Assembly (NCBI GenBank): GCA_963717065.1
Contig: CAVQVC010000001.1
Coordinates: 1,873,001 to 1,937,000 of the forward strand
Source of the DNA: an uncultured Chloroflexia bacterium
GTDB taxonomy: Bacteria; Chloroflexota; Dehalococcoidia; SM23-28-2; RBG-16-64-32
Reading direction: 5' to 3'
DNA: 64,000 nt
Of the stretch, positions 11,812 through 37,162 are shown in pieces. The notes below the pieces were generated by a model. That model did no database searches, was not told the DNA's origin, and saw only the letters and a list, made by a program, of their open reading frames with translations. Position 1 is the first letter of the stretch, and each line of letters starts with the position of its first letter. The position numbers were made by a program, and so were the translations under genes.

Positions 11812-14305
11812 ATGGCCGAGATGGAATGGACGCGACCTTCACCCGCCGCGAAGGGACGCGAGCTCCCCGGCTGGCTGCAGTCTTTCGCGGCACGCTACCT
11901 GGACTGGGAGGACTGGCTCACCCTCGCCCTTCTTTCCGGCGCCACCCTTAGCGTTGCCGTAACACTCGAAAACGGCGGCTGGACCCGCGACATGCCTGCC
12001 ATCACTCTCGTCGCCATGCTCGCGATTGTCGCCTCCCTCTTCTTCGCCCGCTCGCGCCTCTCCATGCTGATCGCCTGGCCCTCGGCGATCGCGGTGGGAG
12101 CGCTGGTGGTCGCCTGGCAAACGCTGATCATGGTCGGCCCCGGCAGCCCTGAGCAGCGCATCGATGCCGTATACCATCGCTTCGACGCCTGGCTCGACGC
12201 CGCCTTCAACAACCTCGTCAACAACGACCCGCTGCCCCTCAACGTGCTCACCCTCGGCATCACCTGGCTCGGAGTCTTCCTCTTCGGCTGGAGCGTATTC
12301 CGCTGGAACAACGCCTGGATCGGCCTCATCCCCGGCGGCCTCGCGCTATTCCTCGACCTCGCCTACGTCGGCGACGAACTCTCCGGTGCCGTCCTCGGCT
12401 ACGTGCTCTGCGGCTTCCTCCTCATCATGCGCACCAACCTCGTCGGAAACATCACCCGCTGGCGCAGGGAGGGCGTGTCGTATCCGCCGCTCATCAGCCT
12501 CACCTTCCTGAACTTCAGCTTCTGGGCCCTGCTCCTCGTGCTAATCGGCGCCTGGGTCGCGCCCCTCGGCCCCTTCAGCACGCCGGCGCCGGTACAGCGG
12601 CTCGTCGACGAGTTCCACGAGTTCGGGGCGGGGTTCGTCCGCCTTGCCGGGCCGTTGCACGTGAAGAAAGTCGTCCCTATTCACACGTACGTCGGCGTCC
12701 TCCCCTTCCAGGGCTCCATAGACCTTGGGGAGCGTGAGGTCCTCCTTGTCAGCGTGAACGATCCCACTATCCGCGGCCCGTTCGTCCTTCGCGGCACCTC
12801 CTATGACCGTTACGCCTCCGGAGGTTGGGACACGGGCCCCCGGGACGACGCTTCCCTGTCCCCCTTCTCGCGCGGCTCGATTGAATCTCAGCTTGAGGCC
12901 GGCGAAGTGCAGGGCACGATCGTCCCGATGCATGTCGATGTCCAGGCCAAGAGCGTCGTCGGCAACGTCCTTTTCACCGTGGGGCATCCCCTCACCACGA
13001 ACCCCAAGGTAACCGCGAAAGTCCCCAGCGGCAGCCTCGATGAGGTGTACCCGGACCTTCCCGACCAGGGCCGCAACATGCCCGATTCGCAAATCATGCG
13101 CGACTACCTCGCCGACGGCCTCGTCGGCGTCACCGTGGCCCGCGACGCCACCAATGCGGTGGAATATATCGACGCTTTCGACACCAAGGACGCCCCGGTG
13201 ATGGACACCCTCATGCTCGAACCCGGCTCACGCGTGCGCAAAGGTCAGGGCTACGACATCACATCCTTCGTCCCCACCTACACACCCGAGGGACTTCGAG
13301 CCGCGAACGGCGCCTACCCTTCCTGGATAAGGCAGTACCTCCAGCTTCCCGACGGCCTCCCGAACCGCATCGGTCAGAAGGCGCGGGAAGTTGCCGACAC
13401 CTACGCCGACCACAGCCAGGCCGAGCTTACAAACTATGACGCCGCCAAAGCCATCGAGAGCTATCTCCGCGTCGAATTCCCTCTCAGCTACGACGTGCCC
13501 GAGACTCCTCCCGGCGAAGACACGGTCGATCACTTCCTGTTCGAATCGAAGAAGCGGCTACTTCGACTACCACGCGTCGGCGATGGTTGTGATGCTGCGC
13601 ACGCTCGGCATTCCCGCGCGCCTGGGCATCGGCTTCGTGATCGATGAAGGCGACCTCAACCGCGATGGCGACGCCTACATCGTCCGCGACCGCAACACGT
13701 ACGCCTGGCCCGAGGTCTACTTCCCCGACAACGGCTGGGTCACGTTCAACCCCAGCCCCGACCGCCCCGAAAACCTCAACCCGGTGGTCCGCGAGGATCT
13801 CCCCGGGAGCGACCAGATCGACCCCGACATCCTGAAGAATCTCCCCGTCGGCGCCGACCCCATCTTCGACATCCCCGGCGAGGCGTTCGGAGGCGCCGAC
13901 ACCCCCTCGTCGGCCCAGCCCTCAAGCGACAACAACAACCCCCTGTTTGCGCTGGCCGTTACGGCTGTCGTAGCGATGATCGCCGGCGCCATCTATTTCG
14001 GCTGGCAGCGCTCTGTCAACGGTCTTCCCTGGGCGCAGGCTCATTGGGAGAAGCTCGTCCGCATGTCCTCACTTGCCGGCTACCCGCCGCAGCCAGGCCA
14101 GACGCCGGTAGAGTTTGCCCGCGGGCTCCAGCGCACCCACCGCAGCCTGCGCGGCGTCTCCGTCCTCGCCGCCGCGTACTGCCGCTCCCGCTTCGCCCAC
14201 CGCGAGCCCACCGCGGAAGAGAAAAAGCGCATCAAGGACATGTGGCCCGACATGCGAGGCGCCCTACTCGGCAGGGCTGCCACCCGCTTCTTCCGCCGCC
14301 ATTAG
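11812..14305 (+). pseudogene. Polytopic membrane transglutaminase-domain protein (TgpA-like), one frameshift near 13555
   Basis: N-terminal multi-TM region. The TGase core (GYFDYHASAMVVMLRTLGIPARL...DRNTYAWPEVYF) continues in ORF 13391..14305. Third member of the MoxR/DUF58/TGase operon. Confidence 0.8.
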
Positions 14306-14343: not shown

Positions 14344-16275
14344 CTAAGAACGATGCGGCAGGTACCTCAGCGGATCGACCGCGACGCCGTCGCGGTACAG
14401 TTCGAAATGCAGGTGCGTCCCCGTTGAGTGACCCGTGCAACCCAGCGCGCCCACCGGGCGCCCCTGGTCCACGTCCTGGCCTTCCTCGACGTACGTCTTC
14501 GTGAGATGCGCGTAGAGCGATCGCGATCCGTCCTTGTGCGCGATGATGACGTGGTTGCCGTACCCCTCGCTGCTGTAGCCCTCGTCGCCGCTCTCCACCT
14601 CTTCAACGCGGCCCGCGGCGACCGAAAGTACCGGCGTCCCGAACTGGGACAACCCGCCGATGTCGATGGCGTTGTGCACGTACCCCGGCCGCTGCTCTCC
14701 AAAGAACGTCGTTATCGGCCCGTAGAAGGGCCAGATGTAGCCATACTCGGAGGGGTTCGTGTATGCCCAGCGCGCGGCTTCGCTCTGCTTGAACGCCTCC
14801 GGCGGGATCGCCCGCGGTAGTAGCAGCGTCTGCCCCGGGCGGAAGTCGCCAGCGGTCTTCAGTTTGTTCCCCGGATAGGCGACGATCATTCCCACTTCTG
14901 TGCTGTATCTCGCGGCGATGTTAGCCAGCGTCTCGCCTTTGCGAGTCGTATAGACAACACCAGGGTAGCCGGGGAGCACCAGCTCATCCCCCACTCGCAG
15001 CGCATCTCCGATTCCACGCCCGGGATTACTCCACAGGATGTGGTCGGGACATATCCCGAAGGTCTTTCCGATAGACGCCAGGTCATCCCCGGACCTCACC
15101 TCGTACACTACGTACGCTGCCTGCCCCGGCTGGAAGCCGTACTGCCTGGGGTCGGGCGGCGGTGTGGGCGCCGCCGTTGGAGTAGGTGCGGGCGTCGGCT
15201 CCAGCGCTCGCTTGGGCGACAACCTCATCCGCATCATGTACTGGCGCTCCTGGTTGTCCTCCGCTCGTTCGTCCGGCGCTTCGGGCAGCACCACGGGAGG
15301 TCTGAGGTAGGCGAGTATGGCCGGCTGCATGGGTTGAGGAGCCGTCGCCGCCAGCGCGCCGGAATTGTGCGCAGTTCTAAGACCGGCCCCCGCCGCCGCC
15401 GCAAACGCCAGCCCCAGGAACAACACGTGAAGCAGATAGCGGGTTCCCCTCCCCGCTCCATGCGAGGGCAGCGCCACCTCGGGCTCAGCTTCCTCGGCGG
15501 TGCCGGAGACCTCCAGACTCTCGTTCTCGGGCTCGCCGTCTTCGATGGCGTCCGTCGCAGCGCTCACGCTGTGCATCTCCAGGACTTCCTCGGCAGACGC
15601 CGGAGCGCCCGCGACATGGGCTGTCTCCTCGTTCGTCTCCCGATCATCGACGACCGCCTCGACTTCGTCTTCCCAGTCGTCTGTCTCCGCCGCGTCCTTC
15701 GTCTCATCCAGTACCGGGTCTGACAGTTCGACCGAGAAGGTCCCGGCCGGCTCAGCGGGTTCCTCGGGGCTCTCCTCCGCCTCTGCGACCACCTCAACTT
15801 CTGTCTCCGGGTCTGGTTCCGGAGCAGCCGCCTTCAACGAGACCCCCAGCTCCCCACCGATCCCGACCAGGTCCGAGAGCAGGTCCCCTATAGCGATATC
15901 TTCAACCTCGGCAGCCAGGCTGCCCTCCTCAGTCTCCTTCTTCGCGTCCCGGAAGATGTCCAACAGGTCCAGGTCCAGCGAGTCGTCTTTCAGGGCATCC
16001 GCCACCGAAGTGGCGGCGTCGGTGGTTCCTTCACCATTCGCCGCCGGCGCGACCTCCGCCGTCGCCGGCAGATCCACGGCCAGCGCAGCCAGCGGGTCAG
16101 GCGCCCCGGCGGCCTCAATCGCCTCCTCTGGAAGCGCCTCCGGCAGCACAACCGGCTCCGGCTCGTCCAGGCGCGCCCTCATCCGCTCCATCGCACCTTC
16201 ACGCGCCTGACGAAGTGCCTTGGGGTCGCGCTGCGCCCTGCCGTTGTCGCGCTTCATGAAAAATAGCAGTCTCAT
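14344..16275 (-). CDS. Bitopic membrane protein: acidic disordered N-terminal region, one TM, Pro-rich linker, 2x LysM, M23 metallopeptidase
   Basis: 643-aa intact ORF. LysM-like repeats (YEVRSGDDLASIGKTF..., YTTRKGETLANIAARY...). M23 motifs HNAIDIGG and GxTGHSTGTHLHFELY. The start lies 7 nt downstream of the arlJ stop on the same strand. Confidence 0.9.
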   Translation of the reverse strand: MRLLFFMKRDNGRAQRDPKALRQAREGAMERMRARLDEPEPVVLPEALPEEAIEAAGAPDPLAALAVDLPATAEVAPAANGEGTTDAATSVADALKDDSLDLDLLDIFRDAKKETEEGSLAAEVEDIAIGDLLSDLVGIGGELGVSLKAAAPEPDPETEVEVVAEAEESPEEPAEPAGTFSVELSDPVLDETKDAAETDDWEDEVEAVVDDRETNEETAHVAGAPASAEEVLEMHSVSAATDAIEDGEPENESLEVSGTAEEAEPEVALPSHGAGRGTRYLLHVLFLGLAFAAAAGAGLRTAHNSGALAATAPQPMQPAILAYLRPPVVLPEAPDERAEDNQERQYMMRMRLSPKRALEPTPAPTPTAAPTPPPDPRQYGFQPGQAAYVVYEVRSGDDLASIGKTFGICPDHILWSNPGRGIGDALRVGDELVLPGYPGVVYTTRKGETLANIAARYSTEVGMIVAYPGNKLKTAGDFRPGQTLLLPRAIPPEAFKQSEAARWAYTNPSEYGYIWPFYGPITTFFGEQRPGYVHNAIDIGGLSQFGTPVLSVAAGRVEEVESGDEGYSSEGYGNHVIIAHKDGSRSLYAHLTKTYVEEGQDVDQGRPVGALGCTGHSTGTHLHFELYRDGVAVDPLRYLPHRS

Positions 16276-16282
16276 GGCGAAC

Positions 16283-17863
16283 TCACTGTGGCGGCGGCCC
16301 CGGAGTCCCGGACAGGGTGTCCGAGAACATGCTCGCCGCCACTTGCGGCACGATCAACAGGATCAGCCCGCTGCTGATCATCGTTATCGAAAGGAATAGC
16401 GCTGTCTTGTTGCGGTGCCCGCCGGAAGCGGAGCGTGCGGCGAACGCGTTCACAAACGTCAGGGACACGATAACGCCGAGTACGATGATCTTCAGAAAGG
16501 CCGTATCGAACGACTGGAACGCCAGCGCGCCGGGGATGCCGATGTCCTCCGGCCGGATGCTCGCCGTGTTCTCTGTCTGTGACAGCGCCTGCGCGTCCAG
16601 GAGCTTATCGTTGAACGCCGACACCACTTCGGTGATGAAAACAAGCGTCCCCATCAGAGCGATGTGCATGGGAATAACGACGTAGTTGAAAGTGCTCGAG
16701 ACGAGCTTCCGCTTGGCCCGCAGCAACCAGACGCGCAGCGCCATGTCGGAGGCATACTTCCCGACCTTCTCGGGCTCGCCTCCCCAATCGCAACCGTCCC
16801 AGAACGAGCGCACCACGCGGTGCACCAGTTCGCTGCCTGTATCCGCCATGAATCGCGTCCAACAAAGGCTGGTGTTCAGACCGCAGGCTACCCGCGTCAG
16901 CAGGCCTTTCAGCTCGGGCTCCAATGCTCCAATCGCCCGCTGGTCAATGTGGTGCAGGCTCTCGATGACAGTCGCCCCTCGCGCCGCCGTCACGCCGCCC
17001 AGGGAACGCAAGAAGTCCGCGATGTCCCTGTCCCTGGCGTCGATCTTCTGTTCAAGCTTGAGTGTCATGATCCCGACGGGAAGGATGATCAAGCCACCCA
17101 GCACGAACGCAACCGCCACGCCGAACACGAAGTAGGCGCCGGCGCTGACGAGTACCGCCGCCGGTAAGCACGCTTTCGCTACGAGCGATAAACGTTCTTG
17201 TTCCTCCGATCTCATCTCCATGTTGTGGACGATCGGGTCGTATGGAGCGATACGGTAGATCAGGTAAGCGCCCAAAATCGCAGCGATTACGGCCACTCCC
17301 TCGATCATCAGCAGGAAGACTGACCCCAGGTTGTAGATCATGTTCGATATCAGCGCCACCACGACGATCAGAGTGCAGGAGACCATCATCGCCACGAACG
17401 CGTCGGTCCACTTCTTGAGAGCCTCGATCGCCCGCTCGTACTCGTTCGTGTAGTCCTCCATGATCACAGCCGTCTCCCGGGCCAGGAACACGTACTCCGG
17501 CTCGCCGGAAGCCATTGAATTGCCGAAGCGCAGCAAGAACTGCCGGATCACCTCGTCCTTTGTCTTCTTCGCAACCACATGGCAGGCGTGCGAGTAGTCG
17601 TAGCCCAGGGACTGCACGAGGTTGACCACCTGCGCGAAGTACGGCGACGGCGTGTATCCCAGCTTTGAAGCGCTGTCGAAGATCTGCTCCCGGCTCAGGT
17701 TTGCCGTAGAGGTCGACGACAGGTAGGTGAGCACAGTGAGCAGGTCAAACTGGCTGTGGTCCATGTCCAGCAGCCAGCTGCTCTTGATCTCGGCCAGCGC
17801 TGGCGCACGGCCGGACGAGATCGTCTGCGCGTCGGCCTTAGAAGAGGCCTTGCTTCTTAGCAT
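16283..17863 (-). CDS. arlJ: Archaellum polytopic membrane platform protein ArlJ (FlaJ), T2SS-F-like
   Basis: About 525 aa with multiple TM helices and two cytoplasmic T2SSF-like domains. Typical FlaJ size and position after the FlaI-like ATPase. The ATG at 17863 has an AAGGTG SD and overlaps the arlI 3' end by 26 nt. The longest ORF starts at TTG 17899. Confidence 0.85.
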   Translation of the reverse strand: MLRSKASSKADAQTISSGRAPALAEIKSSWLLDMDHSQFDLLTVLTYLSSTSTANLSREQIFDSASKLGYTPSPYFAQVVNLVQSLGYDYSHACHVVAKKTKDEVIRQFLLRFGNSMASGEPEYVFLARETAVIMEDYTNEYERAIEALKKWTDAFVAMMVSCTLIVVVALISNMIYNLGSVFLLMIEGVAVIAAILGAYLIYRIAPYDPIVHNMEMRSEEQERLSLVAKACLPAAVLVSAGAYFVFGVAVAFVLGGLIILPVGIMTLKLEQKIDARDRDIADFLRSLGGVTAARGATVIESLHHIDQRAIGALEPELKGLLTRVACGLNTSLCWTRFMADTGSELVHRVVRSFWDGCDWGGEPEKVGKYASDMALRVWLLRAKRKLVSSTFNYVVIPMHIALMGTLVFITEVVSAFNDKLLDAQALSQTENTASIRPEDIGIPGALAFQSFDTAFLKIIVLGVIVSLTFVNAFAARSASGGHRNKTALFLSITMISSGLILLIVPQVAASMFSDTLSGTPGPPPQ

Positions 17864-19553
17864 TTCCAAGCACCTTGTACAGCTCGTAGAAGTTTGCAAT
17901 GCCGGACGACTTGTGCAGCTTCTCCAGCACCCGCGACCGCCGCTCGATGTCCGCGTAGATTCGGCGCCGCTGCTGCGGCGGGATCCCGCGAGCCGGCGCC
18001 ACCTTGTTCTCCAGCAGGTAGCTGTTCATGTATCCGGTGAACTCGTGCTGGTCCGTGATCGGGTCCCATTTGAACGTCTCTGCATACGAGAAGGAGTCTG
18101 TAACGGAGTCATACCCGAACAGCTCGTTCACAGAAAGAATGCGCCTTCCCAGCTTGCCGTTCGGCAGTTTCACAGCGCTGGCAATCACCACCAGGTTCAG
18201 GTTGTCGATGTAGGACTTCGGCACGCTGATCGGCGGTGCAGTCACGCGCTGGATCAGCTTTTCAACCGTCGCCGCGTGGAACGTGGCCATGCAGGCGTGT
18301 CCCGTCTGCATCGCCTGGAAAGCGATGTTTCCCTCCTCACCGCGGATCTCTCCGACGATGATTTCGTTGGGGCGTTGCCGCAGCGCTGCCTTCAAGAGGT
18401 CGAACATGGTCACGCTGGCCGCCTCACCCGCGGCTCCTCGCACCACTTCGCGCAGCCAGTTCGGGTGCGGAATCTGCACCTCCGGCGTGTCCTCTACAGT
18501 CACGACCTTGGCGTCCGGCTCGATGAACGTCGTCAGGGCGTTGAGGAGTGTCGTCTTGCCCGACGCTGTTTCCCCGGACACCCACATGTTCATCCCCTCT
18601 TCGATCATGATCGAGAGGTACGCGATCATCTGGTAGGTGCAGGCGCCACCGCTAACCACGTCCATTACGCTCAGAGGCGTGGCGCTGAACTTACGGATGG
18701 TGAAGTTGCTTCCCCGCTTCGAGACTTCTTCGCCGTAGACGATGTTCACACGCGAGCCGTCCGGCAGTGTCGCGTCGACGATCGGCTTCCGGTAGGTGAC
18801 CGGCTTGTTGATACGCTCGGAAGTCCGCCGCAAGAACGCGTCCAGGTCTTCGTTCTTGTCGAAGATGATCGTGGATTTGAGCGCCTTGAAGACCTTGTGC
18901 TCGATGAAAATCGGGCCGAGCCCCGCGCAACTGATGTCCTCGATGTTCGGGTCGAGGATCAGCGGGTCCATGATGCCAAGTCCGATCTTGTCGCGGAGCA
19001 TCAGGTATCGGACCGCCTCGATGTCGTCCTGCCCCAGAGCGATCCTTCCCTTCGCCTTCCCCCAGCTGCCGTCTGCATGACGCACGGTTCCCGGGCCCGA
19101 TACGCTCACCACCCGGTCCAGCGAGTTCAGCAAGACTTCACGCTGCTCGTCTATTGTTTGAGGCTGGTGGAACTTGTGCACGGCTCCTATCAGGAGGTCC
19201 TCGACGATCTCCATCAGAGAGTCGTAGTCGCTCAGGATCGTCGGTTCAACCGGCACGTAGTGGTTTCGGGCGTCCTTTGGGTCTGCGATGATGTGCGCGA
19301 ACGTCGCGTTGCCCACCGGATAGATGTAATTGGGGTTGTCGTTGCTTCCCATGGTTCGGTCAAGCTTTTCGACCAGTTCCGGGAACCCCATCTCGCTGCC
19401 CGCCAGGTGGTGGACATAGCGACGCACGTGGGCGTGCTCCTGCGACAGCTCGAGAAGCGCCGCCGGCAGGCTCGCGCAGATGCCGCAGGACGCCTCGATG
19501 TGCGTCAGGTCAGACCAATCGGTCTCTTCAAACGGAAGCGCAACGTATGGCAT
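17838..19553 (-). CDS. arlI: Archaellum assembly/motor ATPase ArlI (FlaI), T2SS-E/VirB11 superfamily
   Basis: 571 aa. Walker A GETASGKTT, Walker B/Asp box IIVGEIRGEE, His box ATFHA. Long FlaI-type N-terminal domain. Confidence 0.92.
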   Translation of the reverse strand: MPYVALPFEETDWSDLTHIEASCGICASLPAALLELSQEHAHVRRYVHHLAGSEMGFPELVEKLDRTMGSNDNPNYIYPVGNATFAHIIADPKDARNHYVPVEPTILSDYDSLMEIVEDLLIGAVHKFHQPQTIDEQREVLLNSLDRVVSVSGPGTVRHADGSWGKAKGRIALGQDDIEAVRYLMLRDKIGLGIMDPLILDPNIEDISCAGLGPIFIEHKVFKALKSTIIFDKNEDLDAFLRRTSERINKPVTYRKPIVDATLPDGSRVNIVYGEEVSKRGSNFTIRKFSATPLSVMDVVSGGACTYQMIAYLSIMIEEGMNMWVSGETASGKTTLLNALTTFIEPDAKVVTVEDTPEVQIPHPNWLREVVRGAAGEAASVTMFDLLKAALRQRPNEIIVGEIRGEEGNIAFQAMQTGHACMATFHAATVEKLIQRVTAPPISVPKSYIDNLNLVVIASAVKLPNGKLGRRILSVNELFGYDSVTDSFSYAETFKWDPITDQHEFTGYMNSYLLENKVAPARGIPPQQRRRIYADIERRSRVLEKLHKSSGIANFYELYKVLGNAKKQGLF

Positions 19554-19559
19554 CGTCGA

Positions 19560-20468
19560 CTACGCCTTCGTCTTCGAAATCGGGACGCTCTTCAAGCCGA
19601 TGCCGGGCTCCACTGTGAAGCTCACGGAATTGGCCACCGTCTTCACGGCCCCGCGGATCTTGGAGACCTCAAGCGTGCGCACTACCTGCTTGCCCAACTC
19701 CTCGATTCGCAGCCGCAGGTGGGCGTCTACGATCGAGTCCGCGCGCAGCCGCAGCGACTCGTTGATGGCATAGGAATGCAGCGTGACGAGGATCGTCTTC
19801 CCCAGGTTCGCCAGCTCCTTGCAGGTCGCGAGGAACGAGAGCACGTACCGGGCGTCGAACTGAAAGAGCAGCGCCGTCATCGAGTCAAAGATGATTACGT
19901 CCGGCCCGTCTGCCGCCTCGATGTACTTCAGGAGCCGTCTCATCAAGTGCTCGGCCTTCTCCTGCTCGATGCGCAGGTTGACAGGGTAAAGCGCCAGCCG
20001 TCGCACGAGGTAGTAGTCGGTGCTCTGCATCCCCAGGCTCTGCATCTGGTCCAGAAACTCCCTTACCGTCGTCTCCGAGAGGAAGGCGACGACCGTCAGC
20101 CCGCCCTTGAGGGCGTTGTAGGCGAGCTGTTCCACGACCACGCTCTTTCCCGACTCAGGGTCGCCCTCCACCAGGGTGATGGTGTCCAGGGGAAGCCCGC
20201 CGCCGAGCTTCTTATCCACATCCATCACGCCCATGGCGATCAGCCGGGGAATTTCCTCGTCTTCCTCTTCGGGCTGCTCCGGTTCGTCTTCCACCATCGG
20301 CTCCGCCGCGAACAGGGCGGCAGGGTCTACGGGCGTAACAGCAGGCAACGGTTCGGCGCCAGCTGATTCGATGTTCTCAGGCGACACCACTTTGACGGGC
20401 GCCGCCGGAGCCTGTTCGCCTTCGGCTTCAGACGTGGTCGGTTCTTCAAGCTTGACTTCTGCTTCCAT
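19560..20468 (-). CDS. arlH: Archaellum KaiC/RecA-like ATP-binding protein ArlH (FlaH) with an acidic ~75-aa N-terminal extension
   Basis: Walker A GDPESGKS and a RecA/KaiC-like fold pattern (IIFDSMTAL, LVTLH). Position between arlG and arlI. Confidence 0.85.
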   Translation of the reverse strand: MEAEVKLEEPTTSEAEGEQAPAAPVKVVSPENIESAGAEPLPAVTPVDPAALFAAEPMVEDEPEQPEEEDEEIPRLIAMGVMDVDKKLGGGLPLDTITLVEGDPESGKSVVVEQLAYNALKGGLTVVAFLSETTVREFLDQMQSLGMQSTDYYLVRRLALYPVNLRIEQEKAEHLMRRLLKYIEAADGPDVIIFDSMTALLFQFDARYVLSFLATCKELANLGKTILVTLHSYAINESLRLRADSIVDAHLRLRIEELGKQVVRTLEVSKIRGAVKTVANSVSFTVEPGIGLKSVPISKTKA

Positions 20469-20478
20469 CAGAGCCTCG

Positions 20479-20982
20479 CTAGAAGTAGACCGTGTACGCT
20501 ACGCCGGTTCCCGTGGACAGCACCAGCCACCGGTCCGGGCTGGCGACCGTTACCGGGCTCACCCGAATTCGGATCGTCATCTCCTCGCCCGTGTCGACGA
20601 TGCGTGGATTGTGGTAGTCGTTTGATATGCCGGTGATTGACCACGAGTTGTCGGGTTGCGAGGGGCTCTCGTCAAACGGCAGCCATATTTGGTGACGCTG
20701 CGAGTCCGAGCCGTCGTAGCTCACTATCAGGTCCATGTGGCTAAAGTCGGAGACCTGCGTCCTGCCCTGGTTGCGGACCTGCGCGGTGATTTCCGCACCG
20801 GATCCGTCCACGGATGTTGACACCACCGCGAGGTCAGTGCCTAACCGCTCCTCGGAGATCACTTCCATCTCTCTCCAGGAGCTGTTCACGTTATTAACGG
20901 ACGAGTTCGTCACCCCGGCGATGAGGACGCCGCCGACGATGATGATCGATGCAATGAGGAGCGCCGGTATTGTGTGTTCCAT
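20479..20982 (-). CDS. arlG: ArlG-like (FlaG) archaellum stator-type protein
   Basis: 167 aa. Single N-terminal hydrophobic helix (IPALLIASIIIVGGVLIAGV) followed by a beta-rich domain. The F versus G assignment rests only on the euryarchaeal gene order. Confidence 0.6.
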   Translation of the reverse strand: MEHTIPALLIASIIIVGGVLIAGVTNSSVNNVNSSWREMEVISEERLGTDLAVVSTSVDGSGAEITAQVRNQGRTQVSDFSHMDLIVSYDGSDSQRHQIWLPFDESPSQPDNSWSITGISNDYHNPRIVDTGEEMTIRIRVSPVTVASPDRWLVLSTGTGVAYTVYF

Positions 20983-20984
20983 GG

Positions 20985-21491
20985 CTAAGACACGCTGAAA
21001 GTCTTGCTGGCCGTTATCCCATTCGGCAGCACGATCGTGACGATGTACTCGGAACCGGAGGCCAGGTCATAGTCGAGATAAAGGGACAGCCGCACCGTGG
21101 CAAAAGGTGACCACTCCGTTGCATTTTCGATTTGGTACTGCCAGCACGGCGTCGCGCGGGGCGGGGATGGGGGCGTGACACAGTCGACCGTGTCGTCGTA
21201 GGGTACCCGCTCGAAATTGGCGGTCGGCCCGAAGAAGACGTCGAGTTTGTCGATCTGGGAGATGTCGGCAGCGCCGACGTTCTTCGCCCAGATGTCCACC
21301 TGGTCGTTGCCGTCGACCCCTGTCGCCTCGATGACCTTTACATCGCTGCGGAGGCGGGTACCGACGACATCGCTTGCGGCGACTATGTCGCTGCTTGTTC
21401 GCTGCACGCTGGGCAGAACAGAGTTAATCACGACAACCGTCGAAACGATTGCCGCGATCATCAGCAGCATGGACGTTATTACTTTGTCCAC
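20985..21491 (-). CDS. arlF: ArlF-like (FlaF) archaellum stator-type protein
   Basis: 168 aa. GTG start with a GGGGG SD. N-terminal helix (ITSMLLMIAAIVSTVVVI) followed by a beta-rich domain. 2-nt gap to the next gene. Confidence 0.6.
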   Translation of the reverse strand: MDKVITSMLLMIAAIVSTVVVINSVLPSVQRTSSDIVAASDVVGTRLRSDVKVIEATGVDGNDQVDIWAKNVGAADISQIDKLDVFFGPTANFERVPYDDTVDCVTPPSPPRATPCWQYQIENATEWSPFATVRLSLYLDYDLASGSEYIVTIVLPNGITASKTFSVS

Positions 21492-21526: not shown

Positions 21527-22315
21527 TCAGAGCGCGGCCAGCCGGTCGAGGTCTTGCATGACCTTTAGCCAGGGCGGGTCACTCTCCTCACTGGAGTTCA
21601 ACAGCTCCTGCAGGTAGGCGAGAGCTCGGCTGATGTTGGGCGGCATGTTGCCCCACAGCCGGTGAATGGCAATGATCCGCTCCAGCTCGTGCGGACCAAC
21701 GGTTGACAGAGCTTCCGTCAGCCATTCCGAAATGGTGATTGTGCCGCTGAGCGGCATCAGTGGGTCGGCCTGGTACATGGGCGGGATCTCCGTGGGCAGC
21801 GGCGCGTCCAGATCCACTTCGGCTGAAGGCTTTCTGAGCTGCCGTTTCACGACCTTTGGTGCCGGCGCATCCTCCGGATCGTCCTCGGCGCCAGTGCCTT
21901 CGTCGCTCGCTTCGATGGGCTCGGGGATCTCTGCTTCTTCCGACGACTCCACGTCCTCAGCTCGGACCACCTCGATGCCATTCGGAAGGGCGGGGGCATC
22001 GTCGGCTGCCTCGGCGTCGCCATCCTCAGCGTCAGTCGCCTCGGATCCGTCCGGGTGCGCGGCCTCATGGGTGTGCGCGGGCACTTCGTGATCACCTTCG
22101 CCGGCGTTCATGGCCTCCTTGGCAACCGCCTCCGATGCCATCGCACGCGCCGTCGTGTTCAGGTCCATGCGGATGAACGCAGACTCGTGCTCCTCGGCCA
22201 ACGGATTGCTCCGCTCGAGGATCACCTCGCGGATATCCAGGAGGACGTTACGTATCTCGGCCTTGAGAACCTTGAACTCGTCTTCCAGTTCCTTGATCTT
22301 GGCGTCGACTTCCAT
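21527..22315 (-). CDS. ArlC/D/E-like archaellum accessory protein (coiled coil, acidic linker, conserved C-terminal domain)
   Basis: 262 aa. N-terminal heptad coiled coil (KIKELEDEFKVLKAEIRNVLLDIREV), an E/D/A/P-rich linker of roughly 110 aa, and a globular C-terminus (WLTEALSTVGPHELERIIAIHRLWGNMPPNISRAL). Sits between the archaellins and arlF, as flaC/D/E do. Family call from memory and synteny. Confidence 0.5.
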   Translation of the reverse strand: MEVDAKIKELEDEFKVLKAEIRNVLLDIREVILERSNPLAEEHESAFIRMDLNTTARAMASEAVAKEAMNAGEGDHEVPAHTHEAAHPDGSEATDAEDGDAEAADDAPALPNGIEVVRAEDVESSEEAEIPEPIEASDEGTGAEDDPEDAPAPKVVKRQLRKPSAEVDLDAPLPTEIPPMYQADPLMPLSGTITISEWLTEALSTVGPHELERIIAIHRLWGNMPPNISRALAYLQELLNSSEESDPPWLKVMQDLDRLAAL

Positions 22316-22352
22316 CTAAATCCCGACCCATCCATCCAAAAGATCCAGCGGC

Positions 22353-22386
22353 GCCGGGCCGCCCGTCTGAGGCAAGACGGCCCGGC
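22353..22386 (-). terminator. GC-rich hairpin between arlB and the accessory genes (possible attenuator)
   Basis: Arms GCCGGGCCG(CC)CGTC / GACGGCCCGGC with an 8-nt loop, just downstream of the arlB stop. A TCTTTTGG tract follows about 9 nt later on the transcript, so this is not a textbook terminator. Confidence 0.3.
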
Positions 22387-22401: not shown

Positions 22402-22995
22402 CTAGTGCAGGTCCATTACGAGGTCGACTTCCGGGGGCATGGTCCGCTCGATCAGGAGCGTTCCACCCTGCGAAGGGACGACCTCAAGCGTGAAGATCTC
22501 GTTCGTGGCCAGCGTCGAACCGGTCGGCGGGTTCACGGTGACCTCGAAGAGCTCACCGTTCTCCAGCAGGTTGTCGCCGTCACCCTGGATCTGGTTGACC
22601 GTGTACGTCGTGTCGGCCACGCGGTCCTGGGCGTCGATGTAGTTGATGACAACCGAGTTGCTGGTCGCCGCCGGGTCAACGAGGACCGGGAAGCCGCCGG
22701 CGGCGTTGGCCAGGTTGAAGATGATCTCGTCGTCATCCCCAATCGTGCCCACCGTCGCGCCGGAGTCCGACACCGTGACGGCGCCGCGGACTTCCAGGTT
22801 GCCCCGAGCCTTCTCCAGACCGGCGAAGACAGTCTCTTTGCCTCGCTCGGCGCTGAACAGACCCGTGCTGAGAACGACGAACGCGAACACCGAAGCGACG
22901 ATCACGAATGCGATTAGAATGATCGCCGTCTCCAGGCCCGTGATTCCGTCCTCGCGCTTGTGAAGCTGGCTAAGCAGCTTGATAAACTTGGACAT
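22402..22995 (-). CDS. arlB: Archaellin (archaeal flagellin) with class III signal peptide, copy 1
   Basis: 197 aa. MSKFIKLLSQLHKREDG|ITGLETAIILIAFVIVASVFAFVVL is the type-IV-pilin-like archaellin N-terminus. Beta-rich C-terminal domain. Confidence 0.9.
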   Translation of the reverse strand: MSKFIKLLSQLHKREDGITGLETAIILIAFVIVASVFAFVVLSTGLFSAERGKETVFAGLEKARGNLEVRGAVTVSDSGATVGTIGDDDEIIFNLANAAGGFPVLVDPAATSNSVVINYIDAQDRVADTTYTVNQIQGDGDNLLENGELFEVTVNPPTGSTLATNEIFTLEVVPSQGGTLLIERTMPPEVDLVMDLH

Positions 22996-23031
22996 TACTT
23001 ACCCCTACTTTCCGTGAGCATCCTGCACGTT

Positions 23032-23616
23032 CTAGTGCAGGTCCATCACTACGTCGACCTCAGGCGGCATGGTGCGCTCGATGAGCAGCGTGCCACCCAG
23101 CGGCGGAACGACTTCGACGGTGAAGGTCTCGTTCGGGTCCAGCGCCCCACCCGGAGCAACGTTCGCCTCGAAAAGCTCACCGTTCTCCAGAAGGTTGTCG
23201 CCGTCGCCCTGGATCTCCGTCACCGTGTACGTTATGTCCGCCGTGCGGGCCTGAGCGTCGATAAAGTTCATGACTACCGAATTGGTCGTGGCAGCCGGGT
23301 CGACCAGGACGGGGAACCCGCCCGCGGCGTTAGCCAGGTTGAACTCAATGTTGTCGGCGGCCGTGATCGTGCCGGACGCGTCTGTGTCCGTCACCGTCAC
23401 CGCACCGCGGACTTCCAGGTTGCCCCGAGCCTTCTCCAGACCGGCGAAGACAGTCTCTTTGCCTCGCTCGGCGCTGAACAGACCCGTGCTCAGTACGACG
23501 AAGGCGAACACCGAAGCGACGATCACGAATGCGATGAGGATGATCGCCGTCTCGAGGCCCGTGATGCCTTCCTCTTTCTTGTTCAGGCTGCCAAGCAGCC
23601 TCAGAAGCTTGCTCAT
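23032..23616 (-). CDS. arlB: Archaellin with class III signal peptide, copy 2 (first gene of the operon)
   Basis: 194 aa. From GITGLETAIIL to RGAVTV it is identical to copy 1. Strong SD AAGGAGGGG upstream of the ATG. Confidence 0.9.
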   Translation of the reverse strand: MSKLLRLLGSLNKKEEGITGLETAIILIAFVIVASVFAFVVLSTGLFSAERGKETVFAGLEKARGNLEVRGAVTVTDTDASGTITAADNIEFNLANAAGGFPVLVDPAATTNSVVMNFIDAQARTADITYTVTEIQGDGDNLLENGELFEANVAPGGALDPNETFTVEVVPPLGGTLLIERTMPPEVDVVMDLH

Positions 23617-24280: not shown

Positions 24281-26551
24281 ATGAGTTTTCTTTCCACTGA
24301 ATCAATAGCCCGCGCCAGCGCCCGCCGGCCCTGGACCGGTGGTGGGCATCTGGATCGCCGTGATCGTCGTGTCCGTCGCCGCCATCGCCACCCTCCTCGC
24401 CTCCGGTCTCACCACGAAGGTCGCGCTCACCAATAACCCGGAGTCCGCGCGCGCCGAGAACCTCCTCGAGGATCACCTGCGCGGACCCGAGCCCACGAAC
24501 GAGATCGTTATCGTGCGCTCCGACACCGCCACCGTGAACGACCCGCAGTTCCGCGCTACCGTCGAGGGGCTGTACAGCGATATCTCCGCCCTCGGGCCCG
24601 AGATCGTCGCCGGCGGCACCAATTTCTACCAGTCCAACGACCCTTCCCTCGTGTCCGAGGACCGCCACACCACGATCCTCCCGTTCGTGATGGCCGGCGA
24701 CGAGCAGGAAGCCGAGGACAACATCGGCGAGGTGCTGGACATCGTCGACAACGCCGACGGCAGCACCCGGGCATCGAAGTCCTGATCGCCGGCGGCGCCA
24801 GCCTCGGCGACGAGTTCCAGACCCAGGCCCAGAACGACCTCGAGCGCGGCGAGTCCTTCGGGATACCGATCGCCCTGCTCGTGCTCATCCTCGTCTTCGG
24901 GTCGCTCGTTGCGGCCGGCATGCCGCTCGTTCTCGGCATCCTCGCGATCCTCGTCGCCATCGGCATCTCCGCGCTGCTCGGCCAGGTTTTCCAGCTCTCG
25001 TTCTTCGTCACCAACGTCATCACGATGATGGGCCTCGCCGTCGGCATCGACTACTCGCTGTTCATCGTCTCCCGCTACCGCGAGGAGCGCGGCACGGGCC
25101 TCGACAAAGTACGACGCGATCGCCGCCACCGGCTCCACCGCCAGCCGCGCCGTGTTCTTCAGCGGCATGACGGTCGTCGTCGCGCTGCTGGGCATGCTGC
25201 TCATCCCCTCCACGATCTTCCGCAGCCTCGGCGCCGGCGCCATCATCGTCGTCCTCGTCTCCGTCATCGTGTCGCTGACGCTGCTGCCGGCCATGCTCGG
25301 GCTGCTCGGCGACAAGGTGAACGCGCTCAAGGTGCCGTTCATCGGCAAGGGCGCCGATCGCCGCCGACCACGAGAAGCGCGGCGGCTTCTGGGACCGCGT
25401 CACCGGCGTTGTCATGAAGTTACCCGGTGGTCAGCCTCGTCGCCTCCGCGGCGATCCTGATCGCCCTCGCCATCCCCTACCTCGACATCAACACCGGCTC
25501 CGCCGGCGTCAGCACGCTGCCGGAGAGCCTGCGCGCCCGCCAGGGCTTCGAGATCCTGCAGGACGAGTTCTCCGCCGGTCTCGTGACGCCGGCCGAGATC
25601 GCGATCGACGGCGACGTCAACGGCGACGGCCGTCCAGGGCGGCATCGACCAACCTCGACGCCGATCCTCGCCGAGCACCCGGAGTTCGGGCAGGGCACGT
25701 TCACGGCCAACGAGGACGGCACCGTCGCCCTCTACGCCGTCCCGATCAACGGCGACGCCACCCCAACGAGACGCTGGACTCCGTGCGCGCGCTGCGCGAC
25801 GAGCTACATCCCCGCAGGCGTTCGCAGGCGTCGACGCCGAGGTGCTCGTCGGCGGCGCAGACCGCCGGCGCCATCGACTACATCGACACGACGGCCGACT
25901 ACACGCCGATCGTCATCGGCTTCGTGCTGCTGCCTCAGCTTCGTCCTGCTGACGGTCGTCTTCCGCTCGATCGTCGTGCCGATCAAGGCGATCATCATGA
26001 ACCTGCTCTCGGTCGGCGCCGCCTACGGCATCCTCGTGCTCGTCTTCCAGGAGGGCGTCGGCACCGAGCTCCTCGGCTTCCAGCAGGTGGACATCATCGA
26101 GGCCTGGGTGCCGCTCTGGACGTTCTCGATCCTCTTCGGGCTATCGATGGACTACCACGTCTTCCTGCTCAGCCGCATCCGCGAGCGCTACGACCACACC
26201 GGCGACAACCGGGAGTCCGTCGCCTTCGGGGTGCGCTCGACGGCCGGCATCATCACCGGCGCGGCGCTGATCATGGCCACCGTGTTCGTGGGCGTGGCGC
26301 TGGGCGAGCTCGTGATGTTCCAGCAGATGGGCTTCGGGCTGGCCGTCGCCGTCCTCCTGGACGCGACGATCGTCCGCTCCGTCCTGGTGCCGGCGACGAT
26401 GGTCCTGCTCGGCAAGGCGAACTGGTACCTGCCGAGCTGGCTCAACTGGCTGCCCGACCTGCGCGAGCGGGAAGGCCGCGAAGAGGCGGTCGCCGCGAAC
26501 GGCCAGCCGGCCCAGCAGCGCGGCGCGACAGGAGGGGCCGAAGCCTCGTAG
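24281..26551 (+). pseudogene. MMPL/RND-superfamily membrane transporter, at least 6 frameshifts
   Basis: Homologous blocks are distributed over ORFs 24339.., 24881.., 25152.., 25427..26551 and unlisted pieces. Two 6-TM bundles (e.g. GIDYSLFIVSRYREE and GLSMDYHVFLLSRIRE) typical of MMPL. Confidence 0.8.
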
Positions 26552-27829: not shown

Positions 27830-28009
27830 CAATCAACCGGATTTCGTATCTGATTTCTGATTGTTTGCGCGGGGTTGTATCTAAACGTTTGATTGTTGGC
27901 CGGCGAAATCGAAGAAACCAGTGGCCGACAGTGTCTGCGCGGATGCTCGGAGGGCCGGATTTCTTTGATTGATGGACCAACTAGAGAAGGACCGCGAGCG
28001 ATCAATCAG
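27830..28009. repeat. Array of five (T/C)TGATTG motifs plus two CCGGATTTC motifs in a non-coding region
   Basis: TTGATTG or CTGATTG at 27857-63, 27889-95 and 27965-71 (plus orientation), and at 27830-36 and 28003-09 (minus orientation). CCGGATTTC at 27837-45 and 27955-63. TGATTGAT/ATCAATCA inverted pair at 27966-73 and 28001-08. Confidence 0.6.
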
Positions 28010-28149
28010 AGGCCCGCGTCCGGGGGTTGGTGTGGCTGCGAGATAAGGCATCGTGATGGCTCCGGAGGCGGGTCCGCAGACGGCGGGACGGGCCTCCGGG
28101 TACAGGGTAGCGGATCGTGTGGGTGATCTCGAAGGGAATGTGTCAGTAG

Positions 28150-28404
28150 TCAGGTAGCCGACGTGCCGTTCGCCTGCTCCACCAATGTCGGCAACGAGTA
28201 GCCCACCAGGTAGATAAACACGTTGTTTATCGTCTGCCGCTCCGCTTCACCCGCCGCACGATAGAACTCCAACAGCTTCGGCCAGTCGTAGGCATCATCT
28301 GTGATCCATAGCGTGCCGAAGTGGGTTCCGTATCGAGCGTCTTCGTCCTCGAAGTCCGTGTCGGGCGGCAAGTCGCGGGTCATGAAGTCTTGCTCAGTCG
28401 CCAT
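28150..28404 (-). CDS. Acidic hypothetical protein (84 aa), last gene of the McrBC-like operon
   Basis: The ATG is preceded by a GGAGG SD located within the end of the upstream gene (3-nt gap). No recognisable domain. Confidence 0.5.
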   Translation of the reverse strand: MATEQDFMTRDLPPDTDFEDEDARYGTHFGTLWITDDAYDWPKLLEFYRAAGEAERQTINNVFIYLVGYSLPTLVEQANGTSAT

Positions 28405-28407
28405 GGG

Positions 28408-28996
28408 TTACCTCCATGGAAACGGAACTAATGCCTTCAACAAGTCGCGGAGGGCAAGGACCCGAGGAACGGGCGATTGACGTCCCAGGTTCCCGACCGG
28501 TCGATGCCTGCGATCAGATTCGAATCTCTCGATTTCGTCCATAACCAGATCGCCTTCCCAACGACAATCGTGCCAGTCAACGTCATCGGTCGTCTTGAAC
28601 ACCGCATAGATGTAGTCCTGTTCTTTCGCACTGGAGCGGTCCCAGGCGGTGAGTGCGGACGTCGCCCGCATTCGCGACAGGATGGTGCGCACACCGGCTC
28701 TGGTGTGCACCTGAAAACCAGGTTCAGTGAGCAAGATCAAGCCCGGAGCTACCGCGCCACGGTGGGAGCGCAGGAGGATGTCGACGCACCCCTGAAATAT
28801 CGGGATGAACATGCAACGACCCGCGTCGGTCTCCCAGTCGGACGAAGGCTATGCCCTCCGTCATTCGCGCGAGCTCGACTTGCTCGGGATACTCGTACCA
28901 AGCGACCAGCACCATGTGTTCGGCGGGTGGCAACGCGCGGTACTCGCGTCCGAACAGTTCGTCTATCTCTTCTAATGCCTGCCGCGCCGTAGCCAA
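28408..28996 (-). pseudogene. Hypothetical protein, probably one ~195-aa gene split by a frameshift near 28815-28850
   Basis: ORFs 28724..28996 and 28408..28812 overlap. The downstream frame stays open upstream of its ATG (..SSDWETDAGRCMFIPIF..), consistent with a single gene. No domain recognised. Confidence 0.4.
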
Positions 28997-29038
28997 CGGG
29001 AGGCTCCTTCAATCTATAGGCGTCGCCAATGTGATATG

Positions 29039-30910
29039 TCACCCGTTCTCGAGATGTGGTGCGGTTGGAGAGATGCCCGATGACGTCGTCAAGGAATCGT
29101 GATATCGAGGCGATCCCCGAGCATTCCCTTGTGAATCGGGACGAACAGCGAACGCTCCGAGCCCTGGTAAGACCTCGTGGAACCCTAGATGAGTTTGATC
29201 ATCACCCGGCGTGCCCGGATAAAGGACATAGGCTCCAGCTGTTCGCCGTATGGCATCACGATAGGCGTGCATCTTGAGGAGATCATCGTATTTGGCCGCA
29301 GTCTGGGTGTCCGTAATCAAGTCGTCCGTGTTTTCAGTGGTATCGTCGTCTGTTCTTTCGCCGAGGATTTCGCCGACACGTTCAACCCGATACTTCGCAT
29401 CGAAGTGAATGTGAACCATCAGCTCATTAGCCTCAGCTTCTTCGCGCTTGTATTCAGCGGGCCAAACGCTGATCGTGTAGTCGGGCCGAACGGCGCGTGT
29501 CCAGCTACTGGCGCGAGTATGATCCCGATCACGGCGAACATGGAAGGTTCGGTTGAAATGGAACTCAGCGTTGAGATTTCTACCCGCCGTTTCAGACCAT
29601 GTTCCAGAAACGGGCGTCTTGAGCTCGACACCGCGTTTGAGATTCAGTTGGGGTGGAACCTTCGTCTTGTCGATGACTACCGCGTGGAGAGGTTGATCGC
29701 AGGAGAATTTTTGCCGGAAGAGTTGTTGGAGTTGGAAGAACAGCCAGTATTCGTAAAGGGTAGCGACATCACGCGCACCGGCATGAAAGACATCCGTGCC
29801 TCCGTCCCACATCAACTGGGACCCAGCGTGGAATTGCAGCCAGTCTAGGGACAGCTCTCGATACCCCGCTTTCCGCTGCAACACAGGGCTGGCGAACGGG
29901 AGCACGTCCGGATGCGATACTTCAGGGAAGAACCCACGCGAGAGGTAACCGTCCAGGAGCGCGCGTAGCCGCGTGCAGTCGTTGATCAGACGTCGCTGGT
30001 CTGGCCGATCAATGCCGCGATTATTGCTGACCACCAAGTGGGCCAACACATCCGAGAAAAAGTTTCGGAATTCGACGAGGACCATTTTGGCGAACCGGTT
30101 CTCGGCAGTGTCCAAGAAATCAGTGCGGTGGCGCACGCTGATTGATGTTGGTAGAGACTCAATGCCGATAGTCCGCGGAGCAGGAACGCGCCTTGATGCA
30201 GCCTCGATTTGTCTAACGAACAGTTTGTCTGGTTTGAATGGCTTGGAGATGTCGCGGTCCTCCCGCTCATCTTCCATTCTGCGATGGGGATTGCGGAGTA
30301 TCTCGTTGACGGCCGCGCCGAATTGTACTGATTCAACGGTGTGGCGAAGGAACTCAAGCTGTTGTTCGAGTACGCGCGTGTTCTGGCGCCACAGGATGTC
30401 AAGGCGAACTTGGGTTGGTGCGCGACAATCCATCAGTAGGGCTGAACTTTGACGAGCGATGAACGACAGCATGCCTCGATAGTGATCCCGATACCCTAGC
30501 TTCGCCGAACGCACTTCGACCGCCCCGGTGGCGAGGGGACGCTGCGTCTCATCATCGCGTCGGACAACGATGAGGGCAGCAGGCCGACAGTAATCCTGAG
30601 GCTCGATGAAACCCTCCTGCCCGTACGGTGAGTCGATTTCGCTTGGCTGTGTACCCCTCGCTGACAGCGCCAAGTCCATGACTACGCCAGGTGCAGGGGT
30701 GAGACGGTACTGGTAGCGTTCGCGTTCACGAAGCTGTAAACGCTCTTCTCCGAACAGCGCCGCTTCCTCCACGGGAAGAGAAATCAGTGGGTCTTGTTCC
30801 AGCGAAGTCGGCGCGTTGCCAACGCGGGCGAAGATCTCAACGGTCGCGAGCACGCGACCCTCTGGAGTTTTGCACTCCACCACATCTCGGCGCCTGGCCT
30901 CAGGCGGCAC
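29039..30910 (-). CDS. mcrC: McrC-like nuclease subunit (DUF2357-like N-region plus PD-(D/E)xK nuclease)
   Basis: 623-aa intact ORF. RPDYTI ... HIHFDAKY forms a PD...(D/E)xK motif. Starts 1 nt after the AAA+ McrB-like gene. Confidence 0.75.
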   Translation of the reverse strand: MPPEARRRDVVECKTPEGRVLATVEIFARVGNAPTSLEQDPLISLPVEEAALFGEERLQLRERERYQYRLTPAPGVVMDLALSARGTQPSEIDSPYGQEGFIEPQDYCRPAALIVVRRDDETQRPLATGAVEVRSAKLGYRDHYRGMLSFIARQSSALLMDCRAPTQVRLDILWRQNTRVLEQQLEFLRHTVESVQFGAAVNEILRNPHRRMEDEREDRDISKPFKPDKLFVRQIEAASRRVPAPRTIGIESLPTSISVRHRTDFLDTAENRFAKMVLVEFRNFFSDVLAHLVVSNNRGIDRPDQRRLINDCTRLRALLDGYLSRGFFPEVSHPDVLPFASPVLQRKAGYRELSLDWLQFHAGSQLMWDGGTDVFHAGARDVATLYEYWLFFQLQQLFRQKFSCDQPLHAVVIDKTKVPPQLNLKRGVELKTPVSGTWSETAGRNLNAEFHFNRTFHVRRDRDHTRASSWTRAVRPDYTISVWPAEYKREEAEANELMVHIHFDAKYRVERVGEILGERTDDDTTENTDDLITDTQTAAKYDDLLKMHAYRDAIRRTAGAYVLYPGTPGDDQTHLGFHEVLPGLGAFAVRPDSQGNARGSPRYHDSLTTSSGISPTAPHLENG

Positions 30911-30911
30911 G

Positions 30912-32788: not shown

Positions 32789-32833
32789 TGTGTTGCGGGC
32801 GGATTATCTCGAACGAAGCTGTAGGCGAGCCCG

Positions 32834-34206: not shown

Positions 34207-34371
34207 TATAGGATGAGCGGTCGATCAGGACTCGGCGAGATCGGGACGTCAAGCTGTAGCGGAGCCTGTCGACCGACCCGAAGACGGACGGATGCGGCGG
34301 CGGCCCCCCAACAGGGCGGGTTCTGGAGGCATGACGGCCTCCGCTCAGGGTGATCAGGGCGTCGCCTGCTG

Positions 34372-35948: not shown

Positions 35949-36108
35949 TCAGTTCCTCCAGAGAATACGACTCAGTACCTGAGACTATTGTTACGAGGGG
36001 CTCTGACCAATTTCTCGCCCAAATCTTTACTTTGGTGTCGTGGAACCACGAAGACACGACGACGCAAAGGCGTTGAGGAACCGCTTTGACGTTCTTCGGG
36101 AGGCGTCG

Positions 36109-36999: not shown

Positions 37000-37162
37000 G
37001 CGGCGTTCCTCCGTTGAGCGGTCGTTGCGGCACTAGTATGGCGCAACAAGGTCAGCGCGGGAAACACCGCGGGCGCGTTCTTCGCAAATACACAAATACA
37101 GGCGTTTGAGGCGTGTGTGCACGCGAGGGACGCCAGAAACTGCCGCCTGATAGAAGCGACGC

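Follow-up and report, generated by a model that had tools for sequence, protein, structure and literature searches.

In the 64,000-nucleotide stretch of bacterial DNA analysed here (the window), an archaellum operon ends with an open reading frame (ORF) at 14344–16275 on the reverse strand, which directly follows arlJ and encodes a membrane protein with LysM and M23 domains. Our main finding is that a stretch of about 50 amino acids from the acidic region of this protein (residues 96–150) recurs directly downstream of arlJ: a gene with this motif follows arlJ on the same strand in all 35 informative lineages of bacterial archaellum loci, and the motif is paired with a peptidoglycan-directed domain in 22 of the 29 lineages that have at least 2.2 kilobases (kb) of downstream sequence. 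We consider it somewhat better than an even chance that the protein is an archaellum-dedicated envelope adaptor, which would dock on the motor and bind or locally cut peptidoglycan.

The archaellum, found working in bacteria only in 2025, is an archaeal machine built for wall-less, S-layer-covered cells, and in archaea arlJ is canonically the last gene of the arl operon. The pores in peptidoglycan measure a few nanometres, less than the roughly 10 nm of the archaellum filament, so that the archaellum needs a local gap, just like flagella and secretion systems.

The post-arlJ gene and its product

The gene, the spacer that precedes it and the parts of its product are the following.

14344–16275, reverse strand: whole gene, the last of the operon, for a bitopic membrane protein (643 amino acids, ATG start; Pfam M23 and LysM; 22-member family alignment)
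16276–16282, reverse strand: spacer of 7 nucleotides (nt), GTTCGCC, from the arlJ stop codon to the ATG (sequence; no promoter- or terminator-like site)
16165–16275, reverse strand: residues 1–37, hydrophobic-basic N-terminal peptide (MRLLFFMKR...), then a conserved helix (ARE.AME.MRAR) (family conservation; modelled helix 18–37)
15445–16164, reverse strand: residues 38–277, acidic, predicted cytoplasmic region, mostly disordered (composition and low model confidence)
15826–15990, reverse strand: residues 96–150, conserved motif, predicted cytoplasmic, with two predicted amphipathic helices (alignment, profile and model)
15382–15444, reverse strand: residues 278–298, single transmembrane helix with invariant His283 (hydropathy, model, conservation)
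15121–15381, reverse strand: residues 299–385, conserved juxtamembrane ILAYL.PPVV, then a Pro/Thr-rich linker (alignment and composition)
14968–15120, reverse strand: residues 386–436, LysM domain 1, divergent, with an ICPDHILWSNP signature (AlphaFold2 fold and match to Ecp6)
14806–14967, reverse strand: residues 437–490, LysM domain 2 (PF01476)
14356–14763, reverse strand: residues 505–640, M23 (LytM-type) metallopeptidase domain (PF01551, invariant residues, PDB and Foldseek matches)

An earlier note on this DNA, made from the letters alone, had described a 643-amino-acid ORF starting 7 nt after the arlJ stop codon on the same strand, and the sequence confirms this: arlJ ends with CCA CAG TGA, the stop codon occupies 16283–16285, and after the spacer the ATG of the ORF begins at 16275. 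Neither a sigma-70-like nor a terminator-like site was found between the two genes. The lack of such sites fits co-transcription of the ORF with arlJ. The translational coupling to arlJ and the lack of an independent promoter that the earlier note proposed are inferences; a promoter may also lie inside arlJ. Because the genes beyond the ORF (MoxR ATPase, DUF58, transglutaminase) are convergent and unrelated, the ORF is the operon's last gene. The deposited copy of the protein (P0001) is 100% identical and is annotated from Met7, with a length of 637 amino acids; since all 21 homologues in the family alignment share the N-terminal sequence M-R/K-L-x-R-L-L, Met1 appears the likelier start.

The same note had proposed an acidic, disordered N-terminus, one transmembrane helix, a Pro-rich spacer, two LysM domains and an M23 domain, and on this order composition, hydropathy, Pfam and AlphaFold2 agree. 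Residues 1–277 contain 27% D+E, with a net charge of −55 and an isoelectric point of 4.05. In the AlphaFold2 model, which was built on the family alignment, the predicted local distance difference test score (pLDDT) of the acidic region is below 50 outside the motif, and the two helices of the motif are modelled at residues 102–116 and 129–142. The consensus of the motif is D.LD.DLLDIFRDAK.E.EE.SLA.E.EDV.I.DLL.DL..I...LG, in which L104, D106, F108, R109, L120, L132, L143 and G144 are invariant in the family alignment. There is one hydrophobic segment, with a Kyte–Doolittle maximum at 281–299 and a modelled helix at 278–296. As no signal peptide was found in the 643-amino-acid protein, this topology would place the N-terminus in the cytoplasm and the LysM–M23 part outside the membrane. 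The region between the transmembrane helix and the LysM domains (residues 299–385) contains 18 prolines.

Pfam itself reports one LysM domain, the second in order (PF01476 at 442–487, 34.2 bits against a cut-off of 20.9, E = 2.4e-8), and the model gives it a pLDDT above 90. The other (approximately residues 388–435) rests on the model, a beta-alpha-alpha-beta fold with a pLDDT of about 90, and on the alignment of residues 383–488 with the two LysM domains of Ecp6. The M23 domain is matched by PF01551 at residues 533–635 with 91.6 bits (gathering cut-off 28.7), and H534xxxD538, H590 and H621xH623 are invariant across the 22 sequences of the family alignment; by analogy with LytM and lysostaphin, we take these residues to be zinc ligands and catalytic histidines. 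With these motifs complete and invariant and all catalytic residues intact, the domain looks active. Its modelled fold is the LytM beta-sheet (pLDDT about 90), and Foldseek matches it to LytM, lysostaphin, EnpA, ShyA, EnvC and DipM, with target template-modelling scores of 0.7–0.8 for EnvC, EnpA, lysostaphin and LytM.

Conservation of the motif after arlJ and exchange of the external domain

We compared 88 bacterial archaellum loci, including that of the window; the other 87 comprise 4 from genomes, 3 from contigs carrying homologues and 80 metagenome loci, found by a scan with an ArlJ alignment, in which ArlJ is 39–76% identical to that of the window. The sample therefore covers ArlJ of at least 39% identity, and SAR202, Litorilinea and archaeal loci lie outside it. 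A hidden Markov model (HMM) of the motif, built from parts of the family alignment, was searched against six-frame ORFs through three to four rounds of iteration and was positive after arlJ in 72 of the 87 loci. Of the 15 negative loci, 14 have under 450 nt of sequence beyond arlJ; the remaining one, L079 (L numbers denote loci of the sample), shows the motif by eye with a score just below the threshold. Clustering of ArlJ at 90% identity gave 46 lineages, of which 35 have at least 490 nt downstream of arlJ and were taken as informative. The HMM detects the motif gene in 34 of these and inspection by eye in the lineage of L079, with gaps of 5–70 nt from arlJ. Searched over the 692 kb of the loci and over the 64-kb window, the HMM gave no further match. 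Of the 190 pairwise comparisons of representative loci, only 9, each between close relatives, show a similar ORF in the 3 kb past the module; since synteny stops right after the module, the conserved part of the cluster ends with it, and general synteny does not account for its presence. The earlier note had asked whether a LysM/M23 gene is conserved after arlJ in other bacterial archaellum loci; the homologous motif gene is, and LysM–M23 itself is confined to the window clade (9 lineages).

The N-terminal module is rare. An exhaustive search of 1.84 billion representative proteins with a profile of its 335 residues returned only 70 clusters (at 50% identity) with E ≤ 0.001, and the Pfam domains fused to it are only LysM (21), M23 (15) and one stray DsrC. 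No Pfam or NCBIfam match was obtained for the N-terminal region or for the small motif proteins of other loci (residues 1–335: none at NCBIfam E ≤ 1), and the motif profile matched no PDB sequence. A word-based search of a 5.8-billion-protein collection with a 34-sequence motif alignment, a method unsuited to a motif of 50 amino acids, gave three short proteins. A relation of the motif to the ArlCDE-like protein of the locus was tried and rejected (hhalign probability 0.1%).

These data bear on the explanation that the gene encodes a housekeeping wall hydrolase (MepM/ShyA/DipM/NlpD-like) that stands at the operon end by chance and is not physically connected with the machine. LysM together with M23 is indeed common among division and elongation enzymes, and the best NCBIfam matches of the protein are DipM, ActS and NlpD. 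However, their scores (91 against 900, 77 against 375 and 74 against 311, respectively) lie far under the family cut-offs and the active site is intact, so that membership of these families was rejected. Moreover, in the loci examined the N-terminal module, for all its rarity, is found only after arlJ, and the two genes stay adjacent even where ArlJ identity is as low as 39%, with every other neighbour changing. We regard a chance position as very improbable.

The lengths of the 70 clusters fall into the module classes seen at the loci, which we designate A–E.

Class A (window clade, 9 lineages): one protein with the motif, acidic tether, transmembrane helix, two LysM domains and M23
Class B (sister clade, the largest class of the sample): two proteins, of which the first is small, soluble and acidic and has the motif at its end, and the second combines the motif, a transmembrane helix and two LysM domains and lacks a peptidase
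Class C (7 lineages): one protein with a transmembrane helix, an external beta-rich segment of about 100 amino acids, a second transmembrane helix, an acidic tether and, C-terminally, the motif
Class D (L067, L074; L064 group): two proteins, a small acidic one with the motif and, encoded 3–25 nt on or in overlap, a transmembrane one with SLT + M23 (L067, L074) or another M23 form (L064 group)
Class E (L075, L079, L082): a small motif protein, then a transmembrane Amidase_3 protein (107–122 bits)

Class B is exemplified by L028 (7597–8046 and 8052–9083) and occurs likewise in L002, L003 and L019–L053, with a free motif protein of about 150 amino acids; its double motif suggests that the N-terminal module was duplicated in tandem. 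Class C comprises L054–L063, L068 and L088 (e.g., 11584–12648 of L088), and its sequence loosely recalls an inactive signal-peptidase-like fold. On small proteins of other clades, an M-x-L-F-R-L-R-R start resembles the N-terminal peptide of the window protein. An Amidase3 domain in the L064-type M23 proteins was considered and dropped, being a weak signal of a home-made HMM that Pfam did not confirm.

The module classes follow the ArlJ tree, which indicates that the module was inherited with the machine and that one external domain took the place of another at deep nodes. In the window clade the motif is fused to the wall domain; in classes D and E two tightly spaced or overlapping genes encode them. 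Because fusion in one clade corresponds to adjacent genes in others, and because non-homologous wall enzymes replace each other, we argue that the motif and the wall domain would work together, with peptidoglycan as the probable target.

The distribution of the motif can also be read in another way. It is the sole element present in all classes, including class C and the free small soluble proteins, and class B has it twice, once on a soluble protein. The conserved function might then be purely cytoplasmic, that of a motor component or regulator (an ArlX-like scaffold, a brake, or a chaperone that assists ArlJ assembly), with the transmembrane helix and external domain serving only for membrane fixing or as a lineage-specific extra. 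We consider this unlikely, since the peptidoglycan-directed domain with which the motif is paired in most lineages is replaced by other such domains and not by random ones.

A further explanation, which we consider improbable, is that the protein signals or regulates across the membrane, in the manner of an anti-sigma factor or as a sensor of the state of the wall, and couples envelope status to archaellum expression or activity. The bitopic layout, in which an extracytoplasmic ligand-binding domain is joined to a cytoplasmic peptide motif, resembles that of anti-sigma factors, and the small soluble motif proteins could be released partners. On the other hand, no sigma factor or regulator gene is conserved alongside, and the catalytic residues of both M23 and Amidase_3 are retained, which would be needless for a sensor.

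Known systems and the proposed role

Wall-lytic enzymes encoded with a rotary motility machine, and presumably targeted for crossing peptidoglycan, are known from flagella: FlgJ (muramidase domain), SltF (Rhodobacter) and PleA (Caulobacter). Those enzymes are glycosidases exported to or recruited in the periplasm and act with the flagellar rod, whereas the protein described here is a bitopic M23 endopeptidase with a candidate cytoplasmic docking motif and belongs to an archaellum; no sequence homology to them was found beyond generic domains. The group of VirB1, EtgA, Gram-positive PrgK, TraG (pIP501) and CwlT, hydrolases specialised for secretion and conjugation, is likewise machine-linked, often membrane-anchored at the N-terminus, and has interchangeable lytic domains (SLT, M23/LytM, CHAP), a swapping matched by the SLT–M23, M23 and Amidase_3 variants after arlJ. 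Those proteins, however, serve type III and type IV secretion and lack the acidic tether and conserved motif, while the machine in question here is the rotary motor of a type IV filament. NlpD, EnvC, DipM and ActS, which combine LysM with the M23/LytM fold, are the closest matches in sequence and structure, but their active sites are degenerate and they act as amidase activators in division, in contrast to the intact residues and the archaellum operon found here.

The protein also shares a concept with the OmpA-like anchors of MotB/PomB and the anchoring of ArlF/ArlG to the S-layer, namely that the static part of a rotary motor is fixed to a rigid wall layer. Pfam found no OmpA-like domain in the 643-amino-acid protein, and since ArlF/G homologues are kept in the operon, the protein would add to the stator and not replace it.

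FimV, HubP and TspA have LysM outside and cross the membrane with a single helix; their cytoplasmic region is very acidic, and a short, conserved motif at its terminus binds partners. The topology of the window protein, with LysM outside and an acidic tether and a conserved motif of about 50 amino acids inside, mirrors this, and the archaellum of Litorilinea has been reported as polar (PMC13319060); the protein might thus be a polar landmark or hub that recruits the motor to the cell pole, with the peptidase incidental to passage. Compared with FimV/HubP/TspA, however, the order is reversed (motif N-terminal, LysM C-terminal) and a peptidase with intact residues is attached. Homology to FimV/HubP was rejected: for residues 1–335 and for the small motif proteins, no NCBIfam model matched at E ≤ 1, the FimV C-terminal domain included. 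In addition, classes D and E have hydrolases without LysM, and the position in the operon is typical of a structural or assembly gene. We therefore give the polar hub little probability.

At the locus of Litorilinea aerophila, a PilO-LysM protein with PilN has been proposed as the peptidoglycan anchor of the archaellum, and PilO-LysM was found near arl genes in just three organisms (PMC12488501, PMC13319060). This pair, like TsaP of type IV pili, is a case of a LysM protein, encoded at the locus of a type IV filament, that has been suggested to fasten the machine to peptidoglycan. PilO-LysM/PilN lie upstream of the arl locus, whereas the present module comes after arlJ in each sampled lineage and can carry hydrolases. 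The window protein has no PilO or PilN domain, and its homology to them was rejected, as neither PF04350 nor PF05137 matched at E ≤ 0.01 and only about 87 residues separate the transmembrane helix from LysM. By analogy, the protein would work like known machine-dedicated wall hydrolases and anchors, and it is a member of none of their families.

The author of the earlier note had also known of no description of such a component at archaellum loci. For the gene itself this stands: in the literature searched we found no description of such a post-arlJ gene, two recent archaellum-locus preprints do not mention it, and nothing relevant was found that joins the archaellum with M23 and peptidoglycan. 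The only proteins that this literature names as anchors of the bacterial archaellum are PilO-LysM and PilN. The general idea of an anchor is, as cited above for L. aerophila, in print. What is new is the motif, the place after arlJ that it universally takes, and the wall domains that replace one another; the concept of a peptidoglycan anchor for the archaellum is not.

The window encodes a single-chain beta-prime subunit of RNA polymerase and its relatives are labelled Dehalococcoidia or Chloroflexota, from which it follows that the window is bacterial. An S11 D-Ala-D-Ala carboxypeptidase encoded at 58754–59878 on the forward strand (198 bits) indicates that the host has a peptidoglycan wall. 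Peptidoglycan synthesis is encoded by 235 of 244 archaellated Chloroflexota, and how the archaellum crosses and is anchored to the wall in most of these is stated to be unknown (PMC13319060), a question still called open in 2026; SAR202 has been reported to lack peptidoglycan synthesis (PMC10444878).

In the mechanism that we propose for an envelope adaptor, the N-terminal basic peptide and the two-helix motif, carried on a flexible acidic tether, would dock on the motor (ArlJ, ArlH/I or the ring of the ArlCDE-like protein), and the transmembrane helix, with His283 and the juxtamembrane ILAYL.PPVV, would cross the membrane beside the platform. The two LysM domains would bind glycan strands and so keep the protein at the peptidoglycan, and the M23 endopeptidase would cut peptide cross-links locally. 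In this way a gap for the filament of about 10 nm could be opened and kept open, and the motor could be tied to the wall.

A broader proposal, for which we see a little less than an even chance, is that the module of about 50 amino acids is a universal, unrecognised component of bacterial archaella, a cytoplasmic docking element that couples the motor to an envelope domain suited to the host (LysM, M23, SLT, Amidase_3 or other), and that its invention or its fusion to wall enzymes let the archaeal machine work behind peptidoglycan after cross-domain transfer.

Three observations weigh against an adaptor role of this kind. Class C, with 7 lineages, has no recognisable wall domain and no Pfam match even at E ≤ 5, so that contact with peptidoglycan is not universal. 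The most numerous class has LysM without a hydrolase; therefore, cutting cannot be the common function. Finally, the helices of the motif, the presumed docking element, are modelled with moderate confidence (pLDDT 56–72).

The post-arlJ module is a candidate present at every locus sampled for how an archaeal motor fits a peptidoglycan wall. It provides a new conserved motif with which the motor-side partner may be sought, and its lineage-dependent external domain is a natural experiment that can be compared with envelope type. If the proposal is true, a horizontally acquired nanomachine has been adapted to a foreign envelope by one added modular gene.

The archaellum operon and other features of the window

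The assignment of the surroundings to an archaellum locus, made in the earlier note, is borne out by ArlI and ArlH above the cut-offs, ArlJ as the top match, two archaellins, and weak ArlG/ArlF matches. The genes preceding the ORF are the following.

16283–17899, reverse strand: arlJ, membrane platform protein (NCBIfam ArlJ/FlaJ 433 bits, top match; T2SSF)
17838–19553, reverse strand: arlI, motor and assembly ATPase (NF058587 653 bits, cut-off 550)
19560–20468, reverse strand: arlH, KaiC-like, with an acidic N-terminal extension of about 75 amino acids (FlaH 225 bits, cut-off 194)
20479–20982, reverse strand: arlF-like stator gene (weak ArlF/ArlG NCBIfam matches)
20985–21491, reverse strand: arlG-like stator gene (ArlG 37 bits; Arch_flagellin)
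21527–22315, reverse strand: gene for 262 amino acids in the arlC/D/E position (position kept in L005 and L006)
22402–23616, reverse strand: two archaellin genes, arlB at 22402–22995 and 23032–23616 (PF01917, TIGR02537)

The gene order arlB-B-x-G-F-H-I-J is that of a complete arl2-type cluster, which has been described for Chloroflexota (PMC12488501). Neither Pfam nor NCBIfam matched the product of the gene in the arlC/D/E position. Spacing between the arl genes is 2–36 nt or overlapping, save for one gap of 86 nt after the second archaellin gene. Inside this gap, before the gene for 262 amino acids, lies a terminator-like GC hairpin with a T-run (22347–22363, reverse strand), which may attenuate transcription past the highly expressed filament genes. 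The true start of arlJ is probably near 17863, overlapping arlI by about 26 nt as in L005. The acidic extension of ArlH (20246–20468, reverse strand; 302 amino acids in total) is absent from the ArlH of L088, a class C locus, which has 248 amino acids; presence of the extension may be correlated with which module class follows arlJ. In L005, malic enzyme and universal-stress-protein genes (1–2023) adjoin the arl locus, and in the window such genes lie about 10 kb away (32788–37032, reverse strand); this proximity may be a remnant of a wider synteny.

Elsewhere in the window, a ydaO-type riboswitch for cyclic di-AMP (RF00379; 37466–37608, reverse strand; 87 bits against a gathering cut-off of 38) lies just upstream of the tandem universal-stress-protein gene at 36112–37032 on the same strand. 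A stretch of low GC content at 28000–32800 (0.56–0.58 against about 0.65 elsewhere) coincides with an McrBC-like restriction system on the reverse strand, composed of MrcB_N (32039–32788), an AAA_5 ATPase (30912–32213) and DUF2357 + PD-(D/E)XK (29039–30910), and is probably an acquired defence island. Two genes on the forward strand are split, that of an MMPL transporter over three reading frames (24339–26551) and that of a transglutaminase/DUF4129 protein over two (11812–14305); they are either frameshifted pseudogenes or assembly errors.

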